A DNA stretch of 64,000 bases from an uncultured Planctomycetota bacterium (GCA_963849325.1 CAWKHF010000005.1:864001-928000); one strand, 5' to 3'; shown: positions 3,779-51,772, counted from the stretch's first letter. Translations and numbers: made by a program. Notes: generated by a model not told the origin, from the sequence alone.

Positions 3779-4594
3779 ATGAAATCACCATTTCCGGGCA
3801 TGGATCCCTACATTGAAGACCGTGGCTTGTGGGGAGATTTCCATCATAATCTGATCAGCGAGATTTGCCGCTGTCTCGCCGACGTTGTCTCGCCGCGCTA
3901 TCTGGTACGTACCGGAGAACGCTTTTACCTGGTGCTGGTGGGCGCGGAGGGTAAGGAGGACCGCCCTTTCTATCCCGATGTCAGCACCACCACCCACCGG
4001 AGCCGGAAAAAACCCGCGAACAAAAAGGGAGGAGCGAAGGTCGCGGAGACCGGCGCCGGCCCGCAACCCGTGAAGATGCGCGCCTTCATCACCGAAGAAC
4101 ACCGCGAGAGTTTCTTGGAAATCTTCGAGGCGGAACCGGAGCAACGCCTGGTGACGACGATTGAGGTCCTTTCTCCATCCAATAAGCGCCCCGATACGCC
4201 GGGTTGGGAGCAGTATCAGCGGAAGCGACAGAGCTTACTACTCAGCGGTCTCAACTTGGTCGAGATCGACCTGCTGCGCGGCGGCCAGCGCTTGCCAATG
4301 CTGGATCCGTGGCCAGATTCCCCCTATACCTTGCTGGTGTCGCGCGGAGACTGGTTTGATCGCTGCGACGTTTGGCCGGCCCATTTCCAGGAGCCGCTCC
4401 CTGTCATCCCCGTACCGTTGGCCAAACCCGACCCCGACATTCCGCTCCCCCTTCAACCCTTGATCGAGACGATTTACCAGCGCTCCCGCTACGCGGCCAG
4501 CATCGACTATCGCAAACCGCTGACTCCGCCATTGACCGCCGAGGAGATGAGTTGGCTAAAAGGACGCCTCCGCCAGCGGCAGAGCCAGACATGA
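3779..4594 (+). CDS. DUF4058 family protein (PD-(D/E)XK-like)
   Basis: MKSPFPGMDPYIE start, IEVLSPSNK, LVEIDLLRGG, IDY motifs. Confidence 0.9.
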   Translation: MKSPFPGMDPYIEDRGLWGDFHHNLISEICRCLADVVSPRYLVRTGERFYLVLVGAEGKEDRPFYPDVSTTTHRSRKKPANKKGGAKVAETGAGPQPVKMRAFITEEHRESFLEIFEAEPEQRLVTTIEVLSPSNKRPDTPGWEQYQRKRQSLLLSGLNLVEIDLLRGGQRLPMLDPWPDSPYTLLVSRGDWFDRCDVWPAHFQEPLPVIPVPLAKPDPDIPLPLQPLIETIYQRSRYAASIDYRKPLTPPLTAEEMSWLKGRLRQRQSQT

Positions 4595-7062: not shown

Positions 7063-7231
7063 TTCCTACGGGAGTTGGGATCTTTCCTTCTTATTCCCTG
7101 GAACGGAGTGGGGCAAGGCTCAGCGATCGGATCGAACGGGCGGATTGTCCGAACGGACGGACGGTCTCTGAGGGCTGGGTCCCGTCCCAACCTGGCAACC
7201 GAGTTTCATCCTTTGAGTGAGGTGGTCAGTC

Positions 7232-7708
7232 ATGGCACGACGAGACGCATTACTGCGACTGCATAAATCGCTCTTGAGTCGCCGATCGGACATCCGCAAG
7301 AAGCTGGCGGATGAGCTGGATGGTTTGCGGAACCTCAAGGGGCACGACGCGACCGGAGACTCGGCCGACGTCGCCTTCGAGTCGGGCAGCGAAGAGATGG
7401 CTTCGCAGTTGGCCGAACTGGACGCGCGCGAGCTGAACCAGATCGAGCGCGCCTTGCTGCGGCTGAAGCAGGGCACTTATGGCGGCTGCGAGGTCTGCGG
7501 CTGCCGCATCCCCATCGGCCGGCTCAACGCCTTGCCGTACACGACCTTGTGCATCGCCTGTCAGCGCGAGATGGAAAAGTATCCCGACTGGGCCGACCAT
7601 CGCTCCGTCGGCAGCTGGGAGAAAGTCTACGACGCCGCCACGCCGCTGGAGGAGCAGCGCGAAGTGGACCTCTCCGAAATCGAGATCGACCTGTCGAGCA
7701 ATCGCTAA
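7232..7708 (+). CDS. dksA: TraR/DksA family C4 zinc-finger transcription factor
   Basis: Coiled coil with DSADVA tip; GTYG.CEVC...RL.ALP.TTLC..CQ. Confidence 0.9.
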   Translation: MARRDALLRLHKSLLSRRSDIRKKLADELDGLRNLKGHDATGDSADVAFESGSEEMASQLAELDARELNQIERALLRLKQGTYGGCEVCGCRIPIGRLNALPYTTLCIACQREMEKYPDWADHRSVGSWEKVYDAATPLEEQREVDLSEIEIDLSSNR

Positions 7709-7741
7709 TCGCTCTCCGCGATCCGCAATCCGTCAAGCAAC

Positions 7742-7773
7742 GGGCCGCGTCTCCTCTTCCGGGGACGCGGCCC
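7742..7773 (+). terminator. GC-rich hairpin after dksA, possible terminator
   Basis: GGGCCGCGTCTCC...GGGGACGCGGCCC; weak U tract. Confidence 0.4.
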
Positions 7774-7839
7774 TCCTCATTTGTCCCTCCGCGATCCGTA
7801 GAATGTCCTCGCTCATCCCCGCACGGAGGATCGTCGATC

Positions 7840-8744
7840 ATGCCGGACTTCGTGGTCGTGGCCACCTGGCCGTTCGGACAGACGGCGGTGAAAGCCGCCG
7901 CGTCGCTGCTGCAAGCGAACCAATCCGCCCTCGACGCCGCCCTGGCCGGCGCCAAGCCGTCGAGGACGATCCCACGGTCCACTCGGTCGGCTTCGCCGGC
8001 CTGGGCAACGCCGTCGGCACGGTGCAACTGGACGCCTGCGTCATGGATGGCCGCACGCTGAGCTGCGGCGGCGTCGCCGGTCTGGAGAACGTCCGCCACG
8101 CCGCCGCCGTGGCTCGCCGCGTCATGGAGAAAACGCCGCACGTCCTGCTCGTCGGTGAGGGGGCCAAGCTGTTCGCCGTGCAGCAGGGCTTCGCCCTGGA
8201 GACGCTGCACACGCCGGAGAGCGTGGCCGAGTGGGAGAAGAAACGTCCCAGGGGCCGACCGCGGCCGGAGACGCCGATGGGTTCGCCGTCGGGCAGTCAC
8301 GACACGGTGACGGTGCTGGCGCTGGACCGTCGCGGTTCGCTGGGCGGCGTGTGCAGCACGTCGGGCTTGGCGCACAAGCTGCCCGGCCGCGTCGGCGATT
8401 CGCCGCTGATCGGCGCCGGCCTGTACGTGGACGACACGGCCGGCGCCGCCGGCGCGACCGGCGTCGGCGAGGAGGTCATTCGCCTCGGCGGCAGTTTGCG
8501 CATCGTCGAGGCGCTGCGGGCCGGCAAAAGTCCGCAGGAGGCGTGCGAGTCGGCGGTGCGCACGGTCAACACCGTGGCCGTGCGTCGCGGCGTGCATCCG
8601 GCGCGGGTGGCGTTTGTGGCGCTGGACCCGCGTGGCCGCGTCGGCGCCGCCTGCACCGAGCAAACGGGCTTTCAGTACGCCGTGGCCCGGCCCGGCTCGG
8701 TCGAGCTGCTCAAGGCGAAGGAGATCGGCGTCGAGGGGAAATGA
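7840..8744 (+). CDS. Glycosylasparaginase/isoaspartyl peptidase (Ntn hydrolase); apparent indel near 7955
   Basis: ATWPFG, VQLDACVMDG, HDTV nucleophile Thr, GRVGDSPLIGAG, GATGVGEE. Confidence 0.9.
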
Positions 8745-36364: not shown

Positions 36365-36583
36365 TCACGAGGGCGGCGCCGTCTCGGCGGCCTGGAAGCC
36401 ACAGGTGCGATGGTTGCCGTCGCAGAAGGGACGGTTCTTCGATTGGCCGCAGCGGCACAGGGCCACCGACTCCTTGCCCGGCGGGATGGTGAACACGTTG
36501 CCCAGGTGATCGACGATGCGCACCGGGCCTTTGACCACGTAAGGGCCATTCTCACGGCAGCGGATTTCCACGGGTTCCGACAT
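36365..36583 (-). CDS. CDGSH iron-sulfur domain protein
   Basis: NGPY; LCRCGQSKNRPFCDGNH. Confidence 0.92.
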   Translation of the reverse strand: MSEPVEIRCRENGPYVVKGPVRIVDHLGNVFTIPPGKESVALCRCGQSKNRPFCDGNHRTCGFQAAETAPPS

Positions 36584-36614
36584 CGGTTGTCCTTTCGTCC
36601 CTTGGGTGTTCTTC

Positions 36615-37292
36615 TCAGCCCTCCATCTCCAGCACGCGGTCGCGCTTGGGGTGGTTCACGAAATAATACGAGAGCCGACGAGCCACGTGTTCCAGGAACT
36701 GCTGGCGGAACTGCATGACGGGCATGTCGAAGCTGCTCAGCCGCGGCTCACTCGGATAAAGGTCCGTGAATTCGTCCGGCTGGAGCGTCTCGTCGGTTTT
36801 CTTGACGTCCTCCAGGGACACCAGGATGTGGGTCCGTCCGTGGTACAACTGCTGATTGGCGTTGGGTTCATAGAGACTCAGCTGGTCGATCTCCAGGACG
36901 ATCACGTAATCCGCCTTGAAATAGCGACCGACCTGGGCCGGATCGAGGCTCTTCCACTCGGGGTGGGTATTCTTGTACTCCTCGACCAGGCGCGGCTTGA
37001 CGATGGTGACTTTCTCCTGGTTCTCCTCGGACAATTGATGGATTTGCCGGGCGAGCATGTCGGTCAGCTGGCGATCGACCTGGGCGAACTCCGGCCGTAG
37101 GTCCAGCCCCATGTAGGTCCACAGGACGACCGTGATTTCCTTATTTTTGTCGTCGGAAGCGAGCCGTTTGTACTTGGCCGGCTCCTTCGCTTCGGGGAAG
37201 AGGAAGTACATGGCCGTGGGGAAACTGCAGCCGGCGACGAGGACGGCCCCGCACAGACTCAGCAGCAAAGCTCCCCGACGCAATCCGTTCAT
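36615..37292 (-). CDS. Putative lipoprotein
   Basis: Lipobox LVAGC after a hydrophobic stretch. Confidence 0.75.
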   Translation of the reverse strand: MNGLRRGALLLSLCGAVLVAGCSFPTAMYFLFPEAKEPAKYKRLASDDKNKEITVVLWTYMGLDLRPEFAQVDRQLTDMLARQIHQLSEENQEKVTIVKPRLVEEYKNTHPEWKSLDPAQVGRYFKADYVIVLEIDQLSLYEPNANQQLYHGRTHILVSLEDVKKTDETLQPDEFTDLYPSEPRLSSFDMPVMQFRQQFLEHVARRLSYYFVNHPKRDRVLEMEG

Positions 37293-37303
37293 GGCTCTCT
37301 CCC

Positions 37304-37826
37304 TCATCCTTGAAATGTCGTGCCGGACCACCACGCCCAGCCGAGAACGATCGCCCAGCGCAGCATCATCAGGCCGAGGAAGGCCAGGACGACCCGAGTG
37401 AGGGCGCGCTCCACCGAGTAAAGGAAGAGCGTCCGTTTGCACACCACGCTGCCCAGGCACCAGGGGATGAGCGTCAGACAGAACAGGGCCAGCAGTGTAC
37501 CGACCCAGTTGGCGCGCAGCGAGTTCGCCAGGTCGCCGTGCATGAGCAAGGAAAAGCTCGTGGTCATGCCGCACGACGGGCACGGCAGGCCGGTTTTGTC
37601 GAAGAACGTGCAGGGCGGCAGGCCCATCTTCTGGTGCGTGGCCATGCGCAGGGGCGAACCGTCCTCGTGGTACGGATTGAGCAGGGCGGCCACGACGAAC
37701 ACGGCGACCAGGGCCAGCGCCACGCCGATCAGCGACCCGCGCACCCAGCGCGGAGGACGGGGATGGCGTCGTACACGTCTGGCTCTTCTTGGCTCGACAG
37801 CGTTGGAAGGGGAGTCATAGCGATCA
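37304..37826 (-). CDS. DUF2752 family membrane protein; 5' end likely frameshifted
   Basis: LPPCTF...TGLPCPSCGMTTS motif. Confidence 0.85.
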
Positions 37827-37856
37827 TCCGGGTGCGATGCAAGGGCAAAAGTTTCC

Positions 37857-37942
37857 AGTTCTGAGTTCTGAGTTCTGAGTTCTGAGTGAAAGAAAGAAGG
37901 AGATGTTTTTCACTCAGAACTCAGAACTCAGAACTCAGAACT
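37857..37942. repeat. 'Empty' heptamer inverted-repeat element: (AGTTCTG)4AGTGAAA - 16 bp - reverse complement
   Basis: 35-bp perfect arms with the same unit and copy number as the arms flanking the four-helix-bundle gene. Confidence 0.95.
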
Positions 37943-38590
37943 TTTTTTTCCGCCGCTTCGGTCGCCGCGTTCATGGCCTGTTCGACCTGAAGGCGGTAGT
38001 GTTCGAGCTGGTCCTTGCCGACGTTCTCGGGCACGCGGATCGGCTCGGCGGTGACGCACACGGCGGCGCTCCACGGATGCGGCACGGCGAAGCGGTCCCA
38101 GCTGCGCACTGCGCCAGGCGCGGGCGAAGGCGACGCCGAAGGGCACGATCGGCAGGCCGGTCAGCGCCGCCAGGTAGACCACGCCCGGCTGGACCTTCCG
38201 TCGCGGCCCGCGCGGTCCGTCCGGCGTGATGGCCAGGTGCGCCGACCGGCTCAGTCGCTGCATCTGCCGGATGGCGCGGGCGCCGCCGCGCGTGGCCGAG
38301 CCGCGCACCACGCGGAAGCCCAGGTGCCGGCACGCCTCGGCGATGAGCTGGCCGTCGGCGTGCTGGCTGATGAGAACGTGGATGTCGCGCCGCCCATAAT
38401 GGTAGGCTGGCACCAGGATGTTCTCATGCCAGAAAGCATACAGATAACGACCTCGCAAGTTCGGCTGATTCGGGTCGAGGTTGGCGCCCATCGGCCGATA
38501 GCGGTAACGCAAGGTGCCAATCCACAAGCGGACCAGCCAGCCGACCGCGAACCCCAGTGCCTTGATTAACATCGGATGGCGAATCTTCAT
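37921..38590 (-). CDS. DUF374/lysophospholipid acyltransferase family protein; indel near 38110
   Basis: YAFWH, LISQHADG, VRGS, ITPDGPRGP, SWDRFAVP.P. Confidence 0.88.
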
Positions 38591-38623
38591 CGCGGGCCTC
38601 CCTGCCACACGGACCCCTTGCGG

Positions 38624-39460
38624 CTACTGGGGCCACTCCCCACGGAACACCTCGACGGCGGGGCCGGTCAGATATACGTGATTATCCGCCTCGGACCACT
38701 CCAGTTGCAAGTCGCCGCCGGGCAAATGCGCGGTGAGGCGTCGCTGCGTCCGTCCGGTGAGATGTCCGGCCACGACGACGGCGCAGGCGCCGGTGCCGCA
38801 AGCCAGCGTCTCCCCCGAGCCGCGCTCCCACACGCGCACGGTCACGTCGTCGGGTCGATTGACGCGGACGAACTCGGCGTTGACGCGGCGCGGAAACGCG
38901 GGATGGCGTTCGACCTGCGGTCCCACGCCGAGGATCAGGGCATCGGTGACATCGTCCACGAAGGTGACGCAGTGCGGATTGCCCATCGATACGCAGGTAA
39001 CGCGCAGCGTCTGCCCGGCCACGTCGAGCCCGGCGTTCAACGGCGGATCGCCGGGCAACGCGGTCGGGATGCGGTCGGCTTGCAGGATCGGCTCGCCCAT
39101 GTCCACGCGCACCTGCCGGACGGCGCCGCCGGCGATTTCCAGTTCTAGCGTCAACACGCCGCGGCCGGTCTCGATGGTCAACGGCGACTTGCGGATCAGG
39201 CCGTGATCGTGGACGAATTTGGCCACGCAACGGACGCCGTTGCCGCACATCTCCGCCTCGCTGCCGTCGGCGTTGTACATGCGCATGCGGGCATCGGCCT
39301 TGTCGGACGGACAGATGAGGATCAGCCCGTCGCTGCCAACGCCGAAGTGTCGGTCGCTGAGGACGCGACTGAGACCGGCTGGATCGTGCGGCATCGATTG
39401 GCGGAAGCAATCGACGTAGACATAATCGTTGCCGCAACCGTGCATTTTGACAAAGTGCAT
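38624..39460 (-). CDS. dapF: Diaminopimelate epimerase
   Basis: [34 protein letters not shown]. Confidence 0.97.
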
Positions 39461-39464
39461 GCCA

Positions 39465-40460
39465 TCAACTCTCTTCCGGCTCATCGGGGATTGGCGGTTG
39501 GTCGGGTGTTTCGATGGAGCGGGCCATAGTCAGGCACTCGCGTAGGAAACTCTCTAACCACCGTATCTGGCTCACCTTCGACCGCTCGAAGAAATGAATC
39601 GATTCGGAGGCCAATTCAGCACCTCGCCACCAGCGGCAGCGGCCAGGAATCCAATTTTCTTCCCCCAACTCACCTTCGCCGAGACGAGCGGCTGCTTCTG
39701 GGTCAATTCGGCAGCGTGTGCCGAACCAAAGTTCGTCTGGATTCTCGTAGGCCAAACCGAACCAATACTTTTGTCCATCGAGCCGGAGTCCAATGTAATC
39801 CCAACTCGCCGCCCTCTTGGCAGGCACTTTGCAAGCGATGGCGGTTTCGTGAAGCATGTTGAGCATGTTTGCCAATGCCCGAATCCCTTCAGGCATGTAT
39901 TTGCCCACTTGCGTCAGATTCATATTTCTCTCCCTCAAAAAGTCGAGAAACTGTCTTGCCAGAAAGCTGGCAATCTCATTGGCTGCCTCTACCGCAGGCA
40001 ACTCGCTTTCCAGCCAATCGGCAACCTCAAACCAGCGGACTTCGAGATCCGGGCGTGTTTCGTCCGCCTGGAATACCTCCGGGTACTGAGTCAAAAGAAC
40101 AAGCCGGGTCTGTTTCATGCCGGATTCAGCCAACAGCACTCGATATCCCTCTAATTGCCCGGCCCACAGCGGCGATTCCGCTTTCACCTCGATCCAAACC
40201 AAGCGATCTTTGGTGCTGATTTCCAGATCCGGCCGTCCCGAGCCGGTTTCAACTTGGGTGTGGATCTCTATGGCGCTGGCATCTCCCGGTGCCAAATCGA
40301 CAAAGCCACCCGTTAGCCGGCTCACCAATCGCATGCCGACCTCGGGAGCCAAAATCAGCAATTGTTCCAGCACAACCGCCAGCGATTCCGTCAGGAAGTT
40401 CTCATCCTGCCGGGCCGCCCATTTGTGTAATCGCGCGAACAGGTTTGGGCCGCTGGCCAA
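39465..40460 (-). CDS. PD-(D/E)XK nuclease family protein
   Basis: ENFLTE...GRPDL...IEVK...QL..Y motif; lower GC. Confidence 0.8.
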
Positions 40461-40463
40461 GGC

Positions 40464-40479
40464 TCACTCCCATTCGATC
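40464..40479 (-). repeat. Displaced duplicate of the guaA 3' end (ATC GAA TGG GAG TGA = IEWE*)
   Basis: 14/16 identical to 41161-41176; both mismatches synonymous. Confidence 0.7.
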
Positions 40480-40536
40480 ATCTTGGTGAAACGCATGAAA
40501 TCAAGAATTCTCTGATTCCTCGGAGCGGTCGAATGA

Positions 40537-40854
40537 CTATGTTTTTTTACGTCCTGGTTCGCGCAGCAATCGCCGGGCTAATACTTTTTTTATTCTCTGC
40601 CAGCATTCTTCGGTAACAAAGTAGGTCTGAGTTGCGGCGTAACGTTTCCCGTCGGCGGTTTCAAAGATCACCAGCCACCCGTTGGGCCGATCCGACAAGC
40701 GCAGGTCTTGTCGGGAACCCAGATAGCGAAGACGTTCGCCGACACGAAAATGACGGCAGGTGTCCCAGGAAAAGCCCTCCCCATCCGGAGAGGCATGAAA
40801 CGCCTGAATACACACAAACTCCTCGCCGGCCTGGCACTCCAGGATCACGCTCAT
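40537..40854 (-). CDS. Putative immunity protein (hypothetical)
   Basis: 105-aa ORF starting 12 bp after the toxin-like gene. Confidence 0.55.
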   Translation of the reverse strand: MSVILECQAGEEFVCIQAFHASPDGEGFSWDTCRHFRVGERLRYLGSRQDLRLSDRPNGWLVIFETADGKRYAATQTYFVTEECWQRIKKVLARRLLREPGRKKT

Positions 40855-40866
40855 CGTTCGCGCCTT

Positions 40867-41148
40867 TCAGGAAAAGTTGTCCTCGCCATGATGAACGTCG
40901 CCATCCGGCCGAACATTTGTATGAGAACCATTCGGATGCTGCACGTCCCAATGAAAATCCTCTTCGCGTCCGCTGGGATGAGGGTGCGGCACCCACTCAT
41001 TGCCGTTCGCATCCAGATAACCATCCTGCGGGCCACGCGGCGGGTTTCTCAACCAATCATCTCGCTTCGGCGGAACAAACGAGTGCCTGCCCCGCCGCGG
41101 AAGCAACCGCCAGGGGTACTTCGTCGGCCAATCCTCTGCCGAAGCCAT
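40867..41148 (-). CDS. Stand-alone polymorphic toxin domain (Ntox17/Ntox37-like predicted RNase)
   Basis: LP..G...FVPPK...PRGP..GYLD..GNEWV...HWDVQ...GSHTNV..DG.VHH. Confidence 0.7.
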   Translation of the reverse strand: MASAEDWPTKYPWRLLPRRGRHSFVPPKRDDWLRNPPRGPQDGYLDANGNEWVPHPHPSGREEDFHWDVQHPNGSHTNVRPDGDVHHGEDNFS

Positions 41149-41160
41149 TCGGATTTATCC

Positions 41161-42715
41161 TCATTCCCATTCAATCGTCGCCGGCGGCTTGCTGGTGACA
41201 TCGTAAACGACCCGGTTCACTCCCGCCACCGAGTTGACGATCCGCGCCGACACCTTGCCCAGCAATTCATACGGCAGCTTCGACCAGTCGGCGGTCATGA
41301 AATCGTCCGTCTGCACCACGCGCAGGGCGATGACATTTTCATAGGTCCGGCCGTCGCCCATGACGCCGACGGACTGGATCGGCAACAGCACCGCGAACGC
41401 CTGCGACGTTCTGGCGATACCACCCAGACTGCTTCAATTCGTCGAGCAAAATCGCATCGGCCTGGCGGAGAACGGCGAGACGCTCGGCGGTGACGGGACC
41501 GAGGCAGCGCACGGCCAGGCCGGGACCGGGGAACGGATGCCGATAGACCAGTGCCTCGGGCAGCCCCAGCTCGACGCCGAGGCGGCGCACCTCGTCCTTG
41601 AACAAGTCCTTGAGCGGTTCGATCAGCTCGAAGCCGAGTTCCTTGGGCAGTCCACCGACGTTGTGATGGGTCTTGATGTTGGCGGCGGGACCGTCGGCCG
41701 CGCCGCCGCTCTCGATCACGTCCGGGTAGAGCGTGCCCTGGGCGAGGAAGTGAGCGCCCTCGATGTGGCGCGCCTCGTCCTTGAACACGTCGATGAAAAC
41801 GTGACCGATGCGACGCCGCTTCTCCTGCGGATCGCTGATGCCTTCCAGCGCCTGCAGGAAGCGGGCGCCGGCATCGACGATGTGCAAATCGGCCTGGAAA
41901 TGTCCGGTGAACGTGCGCCGCACCGACTCGACCTCGCCCTGGCGCAGCAGGCCATTATCGACGAAGATGCACGACACCTGCCGGCCAACCGCCCGCAACA
42001 GCAGGGCGGCCGTCACCGACGAATCGACGCCGCCGGACAGGCCGCACAGGACGCGCCGATCGCCGACACGCTCGACCAGCGCCGCCACCGTCTGCGACAG
42101 GAATGAGTCGATCCGCCACAAGCCCTGGCAGCCGCACACGTCGTAGAGAAAATTGCGGAGGATGCGCGTGCCCTGCGGCGTGTGGCTGACCTCGGGATGG
42201 AACTGCAAGCCGTAGACGGGACGAGTGCGATGACGGGTCGCGGCCATCGGACAGGTATCGGTCGCGGCCAGGGACACGAAATCGCCCTGCACCAGCTGTA
42301 CCTGGTCGCCGTGGCTCATCCACACGGTCGTCTCGCTCGGCACACCGGCGAACAATCCGTCGGCGTCGGTGATGCGGCAGACGGCTGGGCCGAACTCGCG
42401 GCTGGGGGCCGACAGAACCTTGCCGCCGAGCAGGTGACAGGCCAGTTGCATGCCGTAGCAGATGCCGAGCACGGGGATGCCGAGGTCGAACAGGCGCGGA
42501 TCGCAGCGCGGCGCCTTGGCGGCGTAGACGCTGGCCGGGCCGCCGGAGAAGATCAGGCCGCGCGGCTTCAACTCGGCGATGCGCTCGGCCGCGAGGTCGT
42601 GGCGGACGATCTGGCAAAAGACGTTCAGCTCGCGGACACGGCGGGCGATGAGCTGGCCGTACTGCGAGCCGAAGTCGAGAATCAGGATCGTTTCATTCTC
42701 AGGCAAAGCAGTCAT
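41161..42715 (-). CDS. guaA: GMP synthase (glutamine-hydrolysing); indel near 41405
   Basis: [43 protein letters not shown]. Confidence 0.97.
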
Positions 42716-42723
42716 GGGACTTC

Positions 42724-43023
42724 TTATTGAAAAAAAGACTCCTGATAGTGGCGAATTTCTTCCGGCGTCGGTTCCGGAGAATCGGCCGAAAATTTGGCGA
42801 ACAGCACGTCCAACAAGGAAGCATCGTCAATGCGTCCGTTACTGCGAAAGCGTTCCACTTCAATTTCGCCATTCTGAAGAAATTCGATCTCCCAATACTC
42901 GCCAGGAACACCGGCCACGACCATGATGGCATCGTCGCGCGAATGTTCCATCGTATAAGAGATCTTCGCTCGATCGAGGCGCTCGAGAAAAGCCAGCAGC
43001 TTGGTGAATTGATCGTCTTTCAT
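42724..43023 (-). CDS. Putative immunity protein
   Basis: LLAFLERL...I.Y....RDDAIMV...VPGE.WEIEF...GEIEVE.F.S.G; ATGA overlap with the upstream gene. Confidence 0.65.
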
Positions 43024-43226
43024 TTGTCAAACCTCTTTGTGTTGAGAAGCTTGTAAATCGTTCGGAATCCCGTCTCTCCTCGTTGCGCTTTTTCCACGAC
43101 CTCTTCCCACGTTAAGGACAGGATGTCACCCCAACTCGGAGAACCGGGACCCAAGGGAGCATATTTGATGCGCGCCTGTTTGCCCTTGAGGATCTCGGCG
43201 ACCGTTTTCCCGGCGTAATCCGCCAT
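43020..43226 (-). CDS. 68-aa protein resembling an Rhs/CdiA C-terminal toxin tip
   Basis: IK.APL.PGSPSW.DI...T.EE...KA..G..GF.TI.KLL...RFDK; starts 1 bp after the proC stop. Confidence 0.55.
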   Translation of the reverse strand: MADYAGKTVAEILKGKQARIKYAPLGPGSPSWGDILSLTWEEVVEKAQRGETGFRTIYKLLNTKRFDK

Positions 43227-43227
43227 C

Positions 43228-44044
43228 TCAAGACTCTCCCAATTCTACCGCTCGCCGCGTGGCCGCCTCAACGGCATCCATCAGGGCTCCTCTCACGCCG
43301 CCGCGCTCCAGGGCGTGCAGACCGGCGATGGTGGTGCCGCCGGGACTGGCCACCATGTCCTTGAGCACGCCCGGATGTGTCCGTGTGTCCAGAACCATTT
43401 TCGCCGCGCCGAGCACCGTCTGCGCCGCCAGCGCCGTCGCCACGTCGCGCGGCAAGCCCACGCGCACGCCGCCGTCGGACAGCGCCTCGATCATCAGGTA
43501 CACGAAGGCCGGCCCACTGCCGGACAAGCCGGTGACGGCGTCGAGCAGGTGCTCGGGCAGCCGAAACGCCACGCCGACGGCGCCCAGCAGCCGATCGACC
43601 AGGGCGACGTCCTCGGCCGTGGCGTTCTCGCCGGGGCTGTAGCCGGACGGCGCTGGCGCCAACCAGGCACGGCGTATTCGGCATGACGCGCACCAGCCGG
43701 CAGTCCGGGCCGAGTCCGTCGGCGAGTTGTCGCAGCGTGATGCCGGCCGCGATGGAGACGACCAGCTGCCCCTTCAGCACCGGACGAATTTCCTCCAGGA
43801 GCGCGGCCATCGATTGCGGCTTGACGGCGAGGACGAGCAACTCGCTGGCGGCGACGACCGCGCGGTTGTCGGCGACGGCGGGGCAGCCGGTCTCGGCGGT
43901 GAATGCCTGGCGAGCCAGCGGCAACGGATCACTGGCGCGGCAGTCCTCGGCGCGCACCAACCCGGCCCGCAGCCAGCCCCGCGCCAGCGCCGTCGCCATG
44001 CGTCCGGCGCCCAGGAAACCAATCCGAGCCATCGCGTCCGCCAT
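43228..44044 (-). CDS. proC: Pyrroline-5-carboxylate reductase; indel near 43650
   Basis: [43 protein letters not shown]. Confidence 0.96.
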
Positions 44045-44145
44045 GTCCCGCCGGTCCTCACCTCGGGAGAGAAGCCATCATCATACTGAAAGAGAGAGGT
44101 TGGCGTAAATCCGGATAGGATGTACCGGGGAGTCATTGGCGACGT

Positions 44146-44565
44146 TCAGGCGTCGGCCCAGTTCTCCAGTTGCAGCCCCGGCACCAGGCGAAAGTGGCGC
44201 AGATTGCGGGTGACGAGTGTTGCTCGGTGTGCCAAGGCGATGGCGGCGATGAGCAGGTCGGCGCGACCGATTTTCTTGAGTTTCTTGTCCTGCCGCAAGC
44301 GGTCGAATTCAGCGGCAGATGCGGCATCGATGGAGATGGTGTCGAACTCGTTCAGGTTTTGCTCGGCTTCTTGCAGCAACTGCTGGGCACGTTCCAGTTG
44401 TGCCCCGTCGGCGGCCTTGAGCAGGAAATCCCACCGCCCCCGAAGAACCTCGATTCGGGAAACAATGGTTATGGCGATCAGGTCCGTTGTTGCCAGGGCA
44501 CGCGCCGCCACTCGGGGATGAGCGTGGATAAGCAGCGTCACGGTATCGGTATCGAGGAGGATCAT
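44146..44565 (-). CDS. vapC: VapC/PIN-domain toxin
   Basis: ILLDTD...E...ADLLIAAIALAH.ATLVTRN.RHF..VPGL..ENW. Confidence 0.92.
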   Translation of the reverse strand: MILLDTDTVTLLIHAHPRVAARALATTDLIAITIVSRIEVLRGRWDFLLKAADGAQLERAQQLLQEAEQNLNEFDTISIDAASAAEFDRLRQDKKLKKIGRADLLIAAIALAHRATLVTRNLRHFRLVPGLQLENWADA

Positions 44566-44933
44566 TCACCTTCCTCGGTCATCGGCCGACCGCGTTGCCG
44601 ATAAATCTCCTTGAGGAACTCATCAAGGTCCGGATGGTCCTTCCAGGCGCCGATCACGGACAGGATAGCTTCTTTGCTTGATTTCCGCGGCGGCGTGCGC
44701 AGCCAATCTTGCAACGCGGACTTCAAGAATCGCCATTCGCCGCCGATCCGTCGGCCCGGGATGCCGTCGCGGCCAATCATCCCCCGCAGATCGGCTTCCG
44801 CCACGCGCAGATACGCCGCCACCTCAGCCAGCGTCAACACTTCGCTGGACGTATCCGGAGGGGGAGGCGCCATCGGCGGAGACGGTGGCTGGGAAGGTTT
44901 CGTTGGACTCGGTTTCGCTTTCGTTCGCGGCAT
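44562..44933 (-). CDS. Excisionase-type (HTH_17) DNA-binding protein, putative antitoxin
   Basis: VLTLAEVAAYLRV...IPGRRIGGEWRF; ATGA overlap with vapC. Confidence 0.85.
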   Translation of the reverse strand: MPRTKAKPSPTKPSQPPSPPMAPPPPDTSSEVLTLAEVAAYLRVAEADLRGMIGRDGIPGRRIGGEWRFLKSALQDWLRTPPRKSSKEAILSVIGAWKDHPDLDEFLKEIYRQRGRPMTEEGE

Positions 44934-44962
44934 GATCGTTCCTTCCTTTCCGGGAAATCTCT

Positions 44963-46540
44963 TTAACTCGCCGCGGCCGGCTCGCGCGGCGGCGCCTCGG
45001 TCGAGTGGATGCGCTGCTCGGCGGCCATCCGCAGGGCGATGCGGTTGATGACCTGCAAGAACGCCAGGGCGCTGGCCTCGATGATGTCGGTGCTCACGGC
45101 CCGGCCGTTGATGACGCTTGCCGTTGTACTCGGCCTCGATGTGGGCCTCGCCCTGGGCGTCCTCGCCGACCGTCACGCTGCGAATGCGGTAATCGCGCAG
45201 CTTCACCTCGATGCCGGTGATCTGCTCGATGGCCTTGAACACCGCATCGACCGGCCCGTCGCCGAGGCTGGCCTGGCGGACGATGGTGCCGTCCTGGTGC
45301 CACAGGCACACCGCCGCCGACGGGATCGTCGCCGAGCCGGCGTTGCACGTCACCGCCTCCAGCGTCCACAGCGTCGGGCCGCTGTGGATCTGCGCCTCGG
45401 CCAGCGCCTCAACGTCGGCGTCGTAAATCACCTTTTTGCGATCGGCCAACGCCTTGAAGCCGTCGAAGACCTTCTGCAACTGCTCTTCGTTGAGGTGATA
45501 GCCCAGGTCGAGGACGCGCTGGCGCAGGGCGTGCCGGCCGCTGTGCTTGCCCAGCACCAACTCCGTCTGCGCCACGCCGACGTCCTCGGGGTTCATGATC
45601 TCGTAGGTGGTCCGCTCCTTGAGCATGCCGTCCTGGTGGATGCCCGCTTCGTGGGCGAAGGCGTTCTGGCCGACGATGGCCTTGTTGCGCTGCACCTGGA
45701 TGCCGGTGACGTGCGACACCAGCCGGCTCGTCGGGTACAGCTTCTTGGTGTTGATGTGCGTCGTGACCTGGAAGTAATCCTGCCGCGTGCGCACGGCCAT
45801 GACGACCTCTTCGAGGGCGCAGTTGCCGGCGCGTTCGCCGAGGCCGTTGATGGTGCATTCGACCTGGCGGGCGCCCTCGGCGATGGCGGCGAGGCTGTTG
45901 GCCACGGCCATGCCGAGGTCGTTGTGGCAGTGGACGCTGATGATCGCCTTGTCGATGCCGCGGACGTGCTTCTTGAGGTGGGCGATGGCGGCGGCGTACT
46001 GGCTCGGGCACCGCGTAGCCGACCGTGTCGGGGATGTTCACCGTCGTCGCGCCGGCCTCGATGGCGCGCTCGACCACTTCGGTCGAGGAAATCCAGTTCG
46101 GTGCGGGCGGCGTCCTCCGGCGAGAACTCGACGTCGTCGCAGTAGCCGCGGCGCGCTGGACGCCCTCGACGGCGCGGCGGATGATCTCTTCCTTGGCCAT
46201 CTTGAGCTTGAATTCGCGGTGGATGGCGCTGGTGGCGAGGAAGACGTGGATGCGCGGCCGGGCGCAGTCGCGCAGGGCTTCGCCGGCGCGGTCGATGTCG
46301 GCGGCGTTGCAGCGGGCCAGGCCGCAGATGATCGGCCCCTCGACCTCGCGGGCGATGGCCTGCACCGCCTCGAAGTCGCCCGGCGAGGCGATGGGGAAGC
46401 CGGCCTCGATGACGTCCACGCCGAGATCCTTGAGGGCGTGCGCCACCTGGAGCTTCTCGGCCAGGTTCATGCTGGCGCCCGGGCGATTGCTCGCCGTCGC
46501 GCAGCGTCGTGTCGAAGATGATCAGGCGGTCGTCGGTCAT
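44963..46540 (-). CDS. leuA: 2-isopropylmalate synthase; several indels
   Basis: IFDTTLRDGEQSPG, HCHNDLG, INGLGERAGN, HEAGIHQDG, LGKHSGR, GDGPVDA regulatory domain. Confidence 0.96.
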
Positions 46541-46558
46541 GGTCGGACTCCGGCGAAG

Positions 46559-46589
46559 AAAAAAGCCCTGGGATTTCCGTCCCAGGGCT
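46559..46589 (-). terminator. Attenuator terminator of the leuA leader
   Basis: mRNA AGCCCUGGGA-cggaaa-UCCCAGGGCU followed by UUUUU. Confidence 0.9.
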
Positions 46590-46628
46590 GTGCTCAGCAA
46601 GCGCGAAGGAAACACCGGCTGGAGGCGC

Positions 46629-46691
46629 CTAGGACCCGTCTCCGCGAAGGAGAAGCGTGTCGAGCAGGCTGAAAAGTAGCTGAGTCGTCAT
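46629..46691 (-). promoter_or_regulatory. Leucine attenuator leader peptide MTTQLLFSLLDTLLLRGDGS
   Basis: 20 codons, 7 Leu, directly upstream of the terminator and leuA. Confidence 0.88.
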
Positions 46692-46806
46692 GGCGGTGTC
46701 GGAAGGGCGAGGGCGTTCCGCTGTTGGTGCGCAAGAAAACCTTAGCAGATAGTGTAGGGGTTCCAGGCGAGGAAGGCAACGGCTCTTTTGTCTTTACCCG
46801 CTTGCT

Positions 46807-48314
46807 GGGTGGGCAGCTGTTACTTGGGTGGGTTTTTGGCTTGTCGCGCGATAGGTTGACTCCCAGGTCCAAAACGCACACGCCTTCTTCACACTCAGGA
46901 GTTGCATCATGGCTTCCCAGCACGGTCCTTCCCCAGTGGCCCCATCCCGCCAAGAACGCATCGAAGCCATCCTGCAACAGCTGCGACCCCAGATCGAACA
47001 GACCGTTCGCCAGCTTGTCGAAAGGGCCGTCGATGTTCCCGAGGCGGAGGAATTCGGCGCCATCGACTTCGAGTTCCGCGATGCCGGGCAGAAGCTGGTC
47101 AACCACGTCCGGCAAGCCAGCGTGGCGAGCCGGAAAAAAAGGGCTACGTAGGCTCCAGCGTACGCTGCACCTTGTGCGGGCACACGGCCAAGTTTCATTC
47201 CTACCAGTCCCGGCGGCTGTTGACCGTGCATGGCGAGGTGCGTCTGGAGTGCGCCTATTACTACTGTGCCCGCTGCCACCACAGTTGCATCCCCTACGAC
47301 GAGGTACTGGGCTTGCACGATGCCATCAGCCCCGGCTTGCGGCCGCTGGTCTGTCTGGCCGGGACGATGGTGCCCTTCGGCGATGCGTCCGAAGACATCC
47401 TCCGGCGTTTCTCCGGAGTGCGTCTGTCGGCTTCCTCGGTATTGCGCTGTACCCAAGGGGAGGGCGAACGCTTGCGGGCGCAGCAGAAAGCGGGGCCGAT
47501 GGTCGAGCCGACGCAGCCCGAACTCCTCTGGACCGCACCGCGAAGGGAAGGGCAGCCCGCGGCCTATGTCGGCCTGGACGCCTTCAGCGTGCCGATGCAG
47601 GGGATCGGAGCAGGCAAGGCCGAGCATCGCATGCTCTACACCGCGTTGTTGTACACGCCGCAAAAGGAGCACAGCCGCTACCTGGTCGATTTCGACCTCG
47701 ATGTGCTGGCGGAGCAAGTGCGCGCGCAGGCCCGGGCGTTGGGCGTTACGCGGGTGAGTGACTTGATCGCCGTGACCGACGGCGGCAACGGCCTGGAAGA
47801 AGCCTTGCAGCGTCACCTGGCCGAGAACCTGACGACTATCCTGGATTGGTATCACGCCGCCGAACACCTCTGTGCCTTCGCCAACGTCTGGCATGCCGGC
47901 GAGGAAACGGCCCGCGTGCTGTGGCAGCAGCAGGCCAAAGGAATCCTCTATGAGCAAGGGGGCGAAGCCTTGCTCACCTTTTTGCGGGCGTTGGACTTGC
48001 CGCCGGAGACATCGGCAGAGGTTCACGAGGAACTGCGGAAGCTGATCGGCTACTTCGAGAACAACCGGCATCGCACCGATTATCCGCGCTATCGTCAGAA
48101 GGGCTGGGACATCGGCAGTGGGCCGACGGAGGCGGGCTGCAAGATCATCGGTGAAAGGCTCAAGGGTTCGGGCATGCGCTGGGTAGAAGACGGTGCGGCG
48201 ACCGTGGCGGCCCTACGGGCTTTATATGTCAGTGGCGGCAAGGTGTGGGACGGCTTCTGGTCGCAGCCTCACCGCGCCGCCGCGTAAAGTCACCCAAGTA
48301 AATGATTCACACCC
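46807..48314 (+). mobile_element. ISKra4-family insertion sequence
   Basis: Imperfect 24-bp TIRs (GGGTG...TTACTTGGGTG, 19/24 match); 9-bp target duplication CCGCTTGCT at 46798-46806 and 48315-48323. Confidence 0.92.
46909..48287 (+). CDS. ISKra4-type DDE transposase, probable -1 frameshift at A7GGG (47134-47143)
   Basis: 80-aa orfA then -1 frame KKGYVGSSVRC; DGG.GL, ILDWYHAAEHL, IGSGPTEAGCK, RLKGSGMRW. Confidence 0.9.
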
Positions 48315-48425
48315 CCGCTTGCTTCCCGTGCCGTATGTCTACCTACGACGCCGGGACGGTCTTGCAATGGGCGACGGTTCGGGGAAAGATGGAAGACGAC
48401 TCTCCCTCTTGGCCGCGGCGCGGAG

Positions 48426-51699: not shown

Positions 51700-51772
51700 T
51701 GACCCCGAGGGGATTCGAACCCCTGTCGCGGCCGTGAAAGGGCCGTGTCCTGGGCCTCTAGACGACGGGGCC
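51700..51772 (-). tRNA. tRNA-Glu (TTC), CCA not encoded
   Basis: Reverse complement GGCCCCGTCGTCTAGAGGCCCAGGACACGGCCCTTTCACGGCCGCGACAGGGGTTCGAATCCCCTCGGGGTCA folds as a cloverleaf. Confidence 0.97.

Follow-up and report, generated by a model that had tools for sequence, protein, structure and literature searches.

In a 64,000-nt stretch of the genome of a soil planctomycete (hereafter the window, in whose positions all coordinates are given), two junctions between core biosynthetic genes are occupied by short genes that resemble the tips of polymorphic toxins, each followed by a small gene for a putative immunity partner. The two pairs, p68 with p99 between proC and guaA, and Ntox93 with imm105 between guaA and dapF, belong to a run of genes, all on the minus strand, in the order leuA, HTH_17, PIN/VapC, proC, p68, p99, guaA, Ntox93, imm105, a gene for a 331-aa protein and dapF, after which comes a DUF374 gene (table of open reading frames (ORFs) and Pfam matches; Table 1). 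The reading that we favor, with a probability of about 0.6, is that these solo toxin tips and their partners are addiction-like passengers of essential operons that are swapped and lost through recombination of the core genes.

Neither p68 nor p99 matches any model in Pfam, NCBIfam or PADLOC. When a profile built from 17 p68 sequences was searched against 1.84 billion cluster representatives, 303 proteins were retrieved at E ≤ 1e-3, 223 of them at E ≤ 1e-10. The domain forms the C-terminal end of the protein in all of the 150 matches listed, in proteins of up to 1654 aa. Among 24 of these proteins that were compared with Pfam, 10 contain RHS repeats, one a PT-HINT domain and one an extracellular contractile injection system (eCIS) core, and the remaining 12 match nothing; in the RHS proteins, as read from the sequences, the usual end of the RHS core is followed by a linker and then by a 65-residue tip. 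Given that the domain ends RHS, PT-HINT and eCIS-core proteins, p68, which consists of the toxin domain alone, with no N-terminal trafficking or presentation domains, is best interpreted as a stand-alone copy of a polymorphic-toxin C-terminal domain for which Pfam holds no model.

The second pair leads to the same class of proteins. Ntox93 matches the Pfam models Ntox17 (E = 4e-12, 46.6 bits at a cut-off of 25) and Ntox37 (E = 4.7e-7, 30.7 bits at a cut-off of 27.8); it too is a toxin domain devoid of N-terminal trafficking or presentation domains, and the same domain ends an RHS protein in one relative (G033) and a PT-HINT protein in another (G093). The partner, imm105, for which no family match was obtained in Pfam, NCBIfam or PADLOC, adjoins Ntox93 in 13 of the 13 places with a close homolog of the toxin domain and in none of the six with a distant one. 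A lead for imm105 from the ESM Atlas (score 0.90; a cluster with DUF3601 in 18% of its members) is weak and was not used. The close homologs lie between guaA and dapF in five genomes (G000, G004, G017, G050 and G184), beside dapF in G055, after a nitrite/sulfite-reductase (NIR_SIR) gene in G065 and elsewhere in G111. In five further genomes (G054, G109, G114, G141 and G163), Ntox93 and imm105 are found between the genes for a class-II glutamine amidotransferase (GATase) and a GXGXG-domain protein, flanks that were read from ORFs and tested with Pfam for G054 only; in the genome analyzed here, this site is empty, with a gap of 52 nt. Because the ratio of nonsynonymous to synonymous substitution (dN/dS) in comparison with G004 is 0.11 for Ntox93 and 0.07 for imm105, both genes appear to be under purifying selection.

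Both pairs are fitted tightly into the run. From leuA to dapF, the intergenic gaps are, in order, 29, −4, 101, 1, −4, 8, 12, 12, 76 and ~4 nt, the largest being that between VapC and proC, and the ORFs of the pairs abut or overlap core genes, an arrangement that fits read-through transcription and makes separate transcription seem unlikely. A promoter scan found four promoter-like sites, compared with 1.0 expected, of which the only one located in an intergenic gap is that before proC, in the VapC|proC gap (44109-44080), and a terminator scan found seven terminator-like sites, compared with 8.7 expected from shuffled sequence, none of them between genes of the run; the consensus used in either scan may not suit planctomycetes. 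In 300-nt windows, the guanine-plus-cytosine (GC) fraction of the inserts is 0.50-0.59 versus 0.65-0.72 in the core genes, and at third codon positions (GC3), it is 0.56-0.72 versus 0.75-0.95, with the same difference among the homologs in relatives. The whole genome (8.16 Mb) contains 24 PIN matches and a single Ntox17 match, Ntox93 itself, so that the clustering of toxin-type genes at this locus exceeds chance. Within 36-49 kb of the window, neither an integrase nor an RHS-type carrier was detected in the ORF listing or with Pfam and NCBIfam. No phage genes or known defense genes were seen near the run (ORF listing and Pfam), and PADLOC made no defense-system assignment, yielding just a generic helix-turn-helix (HTH) match to mad1 and one match at E = 0.039.

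Much of a preliminary description of the stretch is thereby borne out: the gene order and strand from leuA to dapF, the tight spacing (gaps of −4 to 101 nt), the lower GC of the inserts, the lack of an integrase or secretion carrier, which holds for 36-49 kb although an ISKra4-family insertion sequence (IS) is located 267 nt upstream of leuA, and the label 'toxin-like' for the 68-aa protein, which the C-terminal position of its domain on RHS, PT-HINT and eCIS-core proteins supports. The broader statement that every junction carries a toxin-type cassette stands for the two pairs of the polymorphic-toxin type, p68/p99 and Ntox93/imm105, and for the VapBC-like pair, but is not supported for the gene with a PD-(D/E)XK-like motif, a putative nuclease.

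Across 201 sampled genomes of the family, which represent 90 genera, p99 is present in 36 (22 genera), the p68 profile matches in 29, and Ntox93 homologs occur in 17. The two members of the first pair are found together in 28 genomes, p99 alone in eight and p68 alone in one, where it is a fragment of 45 residues; of the 29 genomes with p68, 28 have p99 next to it. The analyzed genome itself has one p68 match. Among 29 p99 loci other than that of the window, 25 have both proC and guaA alongside, three have guaA only (two of these at contig ends, and one, in G066, with neither proC nor p68 in the 1.5 kb upstream), and one (G112) has neither gene within 1.5 kb. The median gaps are 0 nt between proC and p68 (n=19), −4 nt between p68 and p99 (n=19) and −20 nt between p99 and guaA (n=27). 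Judging by these loci, the p68/p99 pair is tied to one junction throughout the family, unlike a roaming cassette. A remnant of the pair survives in G008, where 23 nt of the junction still correspond to the 3′ end of p99 (22/23 nt, E = 7e-8), so 'empty' junctions can be derived ones; similar remnants seen by eye in G001 and G005 are not significant by blastn-short and are regarded as possible only.

These distributions bear on two further points of the preliminary description, which proposed to look for variable cargo at the same junctions across Gemmataceae and took inserts that are fixed and vertically inherited in relatives to speak against its proposal. The contents of the junctions do differ among relatives, but p68/p99 and the 331-aa gene are each tied to one junction over 17-22 genera, with repeated loss, and to the extent that they are so bound, the picture is partly that of fixed, vertically inherited inserts.

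A search of 400 genomes across the phylum added two p68 matches only, both of them solo forms and both in one other family, where p68 and p99 are inserted between the E1-alpha and E1-beta genes of a 2-oxoacid dehydrogenase, with gaps of 3 nt and 18 nt. A related-locus search with the p68 alignment recovered 15 junction loci of Gemmataceae/Gemmatales and two weak matches (L129 and L130), which were ruled out as relatives of p68, being XRE-type HTH proteins.

Homologs of p99 form 64 clusters, all unnamed. The predicted fold of p99 comprises a helix, four strands and two helices (model confidence, pLDDT, 81), and the predicted complex of p68 with p99 scores 0.22, compared with a mark of 0.32. Matches of the p99 fold to Mediator, the MotA C-terminal domain, frataxin-like chains (best Z among these, 7.8) and the TriTu immunity protein (Z 5.8) are considered noise, and matches to alphaRep among sequence profiles of the Protein Data Bank (PDB), which are summed over repeats and include no significant stretch, are taken as compositional. 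For p68, the PDB sequence profiles yielded nothing and the ESM Atlas no usable match.

The evolutionary history of the p68/p99 pair differs from that of the genes that enclose it. We named a genus group before the p68+p99 tree was built; the tree of guaA and proC joins the three members of this genus with 100% support, whereas that of p68 and p99 scatters them, and the approximately unbiased (AU) test rejects their monophyly (p = 0.00095). Between G000 and G003, the synonymous divergence (dS) is 1.7-3.8 for p68 and p99 versus 0.9 for guaA. Such a conflict would arise if alleles were exchanged while the site stayed fixed, or if ancient tandem copies were lost differentially. Tandem copies are indeed present in two genomes, in the order p99-p68-p99 in G114 (locus L038) and p99-p99 in G176 (L053).

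Traces of recombination were found at the guaA|dapF junction, where imm105 is followed by a 40-nt spacer, an 18-nt piece of dapF, a 15-nt piece of guaA and then the start of the 331-aa gene. The 18-mer reproduces letter for letter the genuine start of dapF in G055, and the 15-mer the genuine end of guaA in G001, G002 and G007; each piece occurs once in the 8.16-Mb genome, and the start of the 331-aa gene after this scar is laid out as in the junction between guaA and the 331-aa gene of G002 and G009. Comparable relics exist in other genomes, namely, a guaA 3′ relic at the equivalent place in G050 and a dapF 5′ relic of ~33 nt upstream of the real dapF in G005 and G006 (29/33 and 22/23 nt, respectively). 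The arrangement points to recombination of a guaA-Ntox-imm-dapF allele with a guaA-331aa-dapF allele, which would leave exactly such a scar through a homologous join within guaA and an illegitimate join between codon 6 of dapF and the last five codons of guaA. At the borders of the cassettes, we found no shared repeats and no attC-like structures.

In the account that we favor, the conserved Gemmataceae block DUF374-dapF-guaA-proC would be the backbone, two junctions of which hold stand-alone polymorphic-toxin modules, each made up of a bare C-terminal toxin domain, lacking the RHS, HINT or secretion part that it has elsewhere, and, behind it, a small partner gene of its own; the VapBC-like pair would fill the breakpoint at which the leuA block joined proC in this genome only. 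The pairs would lack space for a promoter or terminator of their own and hence be transcribed with their essential neighbors, with transcription and translation in step with those of the neighbors, and each partner would neutralize its toxin in the cytoplasm. An imprecise deletion, or silencing, would harm the essential neighbor, the 3′ end of p99 overlapping the start of guaA by ~20 nt in most loci, and loss of the antidote alone would release the toxin, so that the pairs would persist as addiction-like passengers; in addition, the partner may shield the cell from RHS toxins of competitors that carry the same tip. Cargo and alleles would be swapped between lineages by homologous recombination or by illegitimate recombination facilitated by homology, in which the core genes would serve as arms and no integrase would take part, and would be lost by internal deletion that spares the gene borders, a mode of loss suggested by the remnants of the p99 3′ end in G008 and of the 3′ end of the 331-aa gene in G004 and G017.

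Several observations weigh against this account. The 65-residue domain of p68 is basic and helical, and its alignment shows none of the conserved His, Asp, Glu or Cys residues that are usual in enzyme toxins; comparison with the PDB using Foldseek gave nothing at E ≤ 1e-3 for p68 or p99, and a wide VIA-align search gave a best Z of 3.5 for p68 and, for p99, of 7.8, which is at the noise level. The dS values of p68 and p99 are near saturation, and with tandem p99 copies in G114 and G176, hidden paralogy could explain the conflict between the trees instead of allele exchange. For Ntox93 and imm105, the dS in comparison with G004 is ~1.0-1.2, set against 0.8-1.1 for the flanks, and at that depth, the history of the pair looks like plain vertical descent. 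Most genomes of the family lack the pairs (p99 is present in 36 of the 201, Ntox93 in 17 and the 331-aa gene in 27), so that any addiction would have to be weak or often escaped. Finally, the 331-aa gene is only a candidate for membership of a toxin system.

The principal rival to the addiction-like reading, which we nevertheless consider unlikely, is that immunity came first, that is, that protection from RHS and HINT toxins of neighbors is what has been selected and that the solo toxin genes are decaying leftovers of acquired modules. Such a history would fit the eight genomes with p99 but no p68, compared with the single fragmentary p68 without p99, and the state of the second pair in G050, where Ntox93 carries four stop codons while the imm105 homolog still aligns over residues 1-99; moreover, the family also possesses full-length RHS and HINT toxins that bear the Ntox domain, and type VI secretion system (T6SS) clusters of Vibrio cholerae contain orphan immunity arrays formed by displacement, as described in a study of that system (PMC5361080). 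Against this reading, p68 is intact and well conserved in the 17 aligned loci (mean column identity of 64%), the dN/dS of 0.11 indicates purifying selection on Ntox93, and 28 of the 37 genomes that have either p68 or p99 have both.

Ranking lower and, in our view, improbable is the explanation that these are neutral passengers, ordinary toxin-antitoxin (TA) or orphan genes that landed by chance and are eroding, in which case the tight spacing would reflect compact operons and the clustering would have no function. Neutral erosion would accommodate the absence of the pairs from 82-92% of the sampled genomes of the family, the decay of the 331-aa gene in many genomes and the generally weak synteny of this genus; it would hardly account for the recurrence of the same pairs within unrelated core operons in independent lineages, the ORF overlaps kept over 19-27 loci, the purifying selection on Ntox93 and imm105, or the retention of the junction over 22 genera. 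Least probable of all is an abortive-infection system in which the pairs and the PD-(D/E)XK protein would form an anti-phage hotspot with toxins freed on infection: although the content of guaA|dapF varies among congeners as in a defense hotspot and toxin-antitoxin pairs can act in phage defense, PADLOC made no assignment, no phage or known defense genes lie nearby, and the toxin domains belong to inter-bacterial polymorphic toxins.

Several described systems come close to the pairs. A polymorphic toxin, as presented by Zhang et al. (2012; PMC3482391), carries a C-terminal toxin domain on an RHS, HINT or trafficking protein. The pairs described here share with these systems the domains themselves, p68 and Ntox93 tipping RHS, PT-HINT and eCIS-core proteins; the small partner directly downstream (p99 with a 4-nt overlap and imm105 after 12 nt), a likeness by position only; and the tendency of toxins to evolve or decay faster than they are replaced, such that an immunity gene can remain alone. 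Unlike polymorphic toxin loci, the cassettes reside between essential metabolic genes, with overlapping ORFs, and the genome contains no other copy of the p68 or Ntox domain; unlike orphan cassettes of such systems, they follow no full-length toxin gene and include no piece of RHS core through which to recombine into one; and unlike catalogued polymorphic toxins, the p68 domain, p99 and imm105 match no Pfam or NCBIfam model.

The likeness to type II toxin-antitoxin systems such as VapBC consists of two small genes, for a cytoplasmic toxin and its cognate neutralizer (both roles putative here), with a patchy distribution among close relatives. In p68/p99 and Ntox93/imm105, by contrast, the toxin comes first, the partner is not a recognizable DNA-binding antitoxin, a promoter of their own and autoregulation are apparently lacking, and the toxin folds are those of secreted inter-bacterial toxins. 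Like cassettes of integron arrays, the pairs are apparently promoter-less, would be read from an upstream promoter and vary in content between relatives, but there is no IntI integrase (within 36-49 kb) and no shared attC-like repeat, and the cassettes are split by essential genes and bound to their junctions. Defense and accessory hotspots flanked by core genes hold variable content that is exchanged via recombination in the flanks, and here, too, variable accessory content is found between conserved core genes; those hotspots, however, are multi-kilobase islands in intergenic gaps, whereas one or two tiny genes are found here inside an operon, frame-to-frame with essential genes.

For the scars, the closest described process is the homology-facilitated illegitimate recombination proposed for the displacement of effector-immunity modules in V. 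cholerae T6SS clusters (Kirchberger et al. 2017; PMC5361080). In that model, a conserved flank anchors the exchange, the other end joins illegitimately, and older genes are pushed downstream, all with no integrase, and both the composite dapF/guaA scar and the order guaA-Ntox-imm-(scar)-331-aa gene would fit it. In contrast to the V. cholerae clusters, homology is provided here by housekeeping genes, which have no delivery machinery linked to them.

Toxin-immunity pairs, VapBC modules and recombination-driven exchange of modules are already known. What appears to be new is that core operons of Planctomycetota repeatedly harbor bare toxin tips, as well as the p68/p99 family, with alleles that are shuffled although the pair stays bound to its junction, and the uncatalogued p68 domain; we found no description of operon-wedged toxin cassettes in planctomycetes in the open-access literature. 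We further suggest, tentatively and at somewhat less than even odds, that Planctomycetota harbor a distinct class of selfish elements, promoter-less and recombinase-less 'operon-wedged' cassettes of a toxin tip and an immunity gene, with p68/p99 as the founding example and a new family. Such cassettes would have settled in proC|guaA, in guaA|dapF, between the genes for E1 dehydrogenase subunits and in GATase|GXGXG; overlapping the start and stop signals of their neighbors, they would be neither silenced nor sloppily deleted, and they would spread or swap alleles via the flanking core genes.

If the favored account is correct, toxin-immunity genes can persist and move without the machinery of mobile elements, with essential genes serving both as the source of transcription and as recombination arms, and the locus provides a concrete, testable case of 'solo' toxin domains becoming addiction-like modules. 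The analysis also names a widespread, uncatalogued polymorphic-toxin tip (303 cluster representatives) and a candidate immunity partner. For annotators, it implies that tiny low-GC ORFs within core operons of Gemmataceae are real conserved genes.

Table 1 Features of the leuA-dapF run and its surroundings, in window coordinates.
Feature	Position	Strand	Basis
DUF374 gene, next in the conserved block	37928..38608	-	Pfam DUF374 2.8e-25; syntenic with dapF in relatives
dapF (diaminopimelate epimerase)	38624..39484	-	Pfam DAP_epimerase 2e-69
331-aa Gemmataceae-specific protein, PD-(D/E)XK-like motif	39465..40460	-	Motif conservation
Recombination scar, 33 nt	40464..40496	-	dapF 5′ piece 40496-40479 (18 nt) + guaA 3′ piece 40478-40464 (15 nt)
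imm105, 105-aa putative immunity partner of Ntox93	40537..40854	-	Position and pairing
Ntox93, 93-aa stand-alone Ntox17/Ntox37-type toxin domain	40867..41148	-	Pfam
guaA (GMP synthase)	41161..42715	-	ORFs; 79-86% DNA identity to relatives
p99, 99-aa putative immunity partner of p68	42724..43023	-	Position and co-occurrence
p68, 68-aa stand-alone toxin-tip domain	43020..43226	-	Profile search
proC (pyrroline-5-carboxylate reductase)	43228..44044	-	Two overlapping ORFs; 79-84% DNA identity to relatives
PIN-domain VapC-like putative toxin, 139 aa	44146..44565	-	Pfam PIN 3.2e-9, above cut-off
HTH_17 (excisionase-type helix-turn-helix) protein, 123 aa, putative VapB-like antitoxin	44562..44933	-	Pfam HTH_17 1.6e-11, above cut-off
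leuA stop codon	44965-44963	-	
leuA (2-isopropylmalate synthase)	44963..46540	-	84-89% DNA identity to leuA of 10 relatives
ISKra4-family insertion sequence, 1509 bp	46807..48315	+	NCBIfam transpos_ISKra4 1.8e-68

The conserved part of the run is shorter than the run itself. Comparison of the DNA at 38000-47000 with 30 relatives, together with tblastn of 14 window proteins on 20 loci, delineates a sole syntenic unit, 36382-44115, which comprises three genes and DUF374-dapF-guaA-proC; the DNA upstream of proC differs across the seven congener loci compared. In turn, leuA forms a block of its own (44965-46790), whose flanks differ among the four leuA loci that were compared, and among the loci of relatives examined, leuA is adjacent to proC in this genome alone. 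The 'housekeeping run' of the preliminary description therefore holds as the conserved block of dapF, guaA and proC with DUF374, but the link from leuA to proC is peculiar to this genome. The VapBC-like pair (44146-44933) occupies precisely the interval that separates the two blocks. Its HTH_17 gene begins 29 nt past the leuA stop codon and overlaps the VapC gene by 4 nt; by this overlap and by its domains, the pair fits the VapBC class, the HTH_17 protein also matching the 'excise' domain of NCBIfam (2.6e-7) and the PIN protein matching NCBIfam VapC models below their equivalog cut-offs. Downstream of leuA, a diverged HTH/VapC pair is present in G001 and a 19-residue VapC remnant in G006, whereas neither gene was found there in the other eight leuA loci checked. 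As judged from this synteny, the 'run' is a conserved DUF374-dapF-guaA-proC block extended by a genome-specific rearrangement, with a toxin-antitoxin pair at one border and an IS at the other.

The ISKra4 element exists in four genome copies at 99.7-100% identity (C1, C2, C5 and C6) and in one at 80% on C12. Conservation with relatives upstream of leuA stops ~15 nt short of the edge of this element. A hairpin of 10 pairs followed by a T-run is located at 46589-46564 (-), 24 nt upstream of the leuA start codon; it may serve as a leader or attenuator or, alternatively, have terminated a gene that was displaced by the IS. The sole match in an Rfam gathering scan of the whole window is a tRNA gene at 51700-51772 (-).

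Seven single-base indels, five in leuA (46483, 46150, 46084, 46005 and 45119), one in proC (43648) and one in guaA (41414), the latter two being insertions, break the reading frames of these genes and are found in this genome alone when aligned with 7-9 relatives (nine for leuA). None lies within a long homopolymer, and none affects the small cassette genes or dapF. Given that the assembly consists of 14 contigs at 84.7% completeness and that no second copy of leuA, proC or guaA was seen, the indels are probably consensus errors of long-read sequencing rather than signs of pseudogenes.

The 331-aa gene, which shares the guaA|dapF junction with the Ntox pair, is probably an old lineage-specific resident of that junction and encodes a putative nuclease. 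Among 16 sequences, D78 and E91 never vary and K93 hardly does. The Pfam model PDDEXK_4 matches the protein below its cut-off (E = 0.027, 14.9 bits; cut-off 22.3) and matches 5 of the 16 homologs, the best at E = 0.0046, likewise below cut-off; a profile search found no PDB sequence relative, and the 309 homolog clusters are unnamed. The 27 genomes with the gene represent 19 of the 90 genera, and 17 of the 26 loci other than that of the window are at guaA|dapF. It is interrupted by stop codons in G133, G171 and G211 and truncated in G008, G111 and G131, and remnants of its 3′ end persist in G004 and G017; a 5′ remnant in G007, seen by eye and not significant by blastn-short, is possible only. 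Although the longest dapF ORF begins at 39484, within this gene, the starts used in relatives suggest that the true start is likely the ATG at 39460, 4 nt past the stop codon of the 331-aa gene.

The same junction holds the 331-aa gene alone in G002 and G009, the Ntox pair with the 3′ remnant of the 331-aa gene in G004, a PIN-like pair with a 236-aa ORF in G007, a 115-aa ORF in G006, a 132-nt spacer in G005 and almost nothing (3 nt) in G003. In G007 (L013 4604-6157, -), the PIN-like gene encodes 159 aa (Pfam PIN 2.3e-4, just below cut-off) and overlaps a 75-aa gene, and the 236-aa ORF belongs to no family.

Some additional arrangements were observed at single loci. According to the hit tables, a tandem array p68-p99-p68-p99 is located at ~7090-8080 of G195:C78. 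At L133 (G570), in the other family, an HNH endonuclease gene (596-937, -; Pfam HNH 2e-11) lies just downstream of p99 that is accompanied by a broken p68. In G001 (L020 ~3858-4058), the sequence right after guaA resembles the 3′ part of a tRNA gene on the opposite strand; genes for an extracytoplasmic function (ECF) sigma factor and an anti-sigma-like protein come next, and dapF is on another contig.

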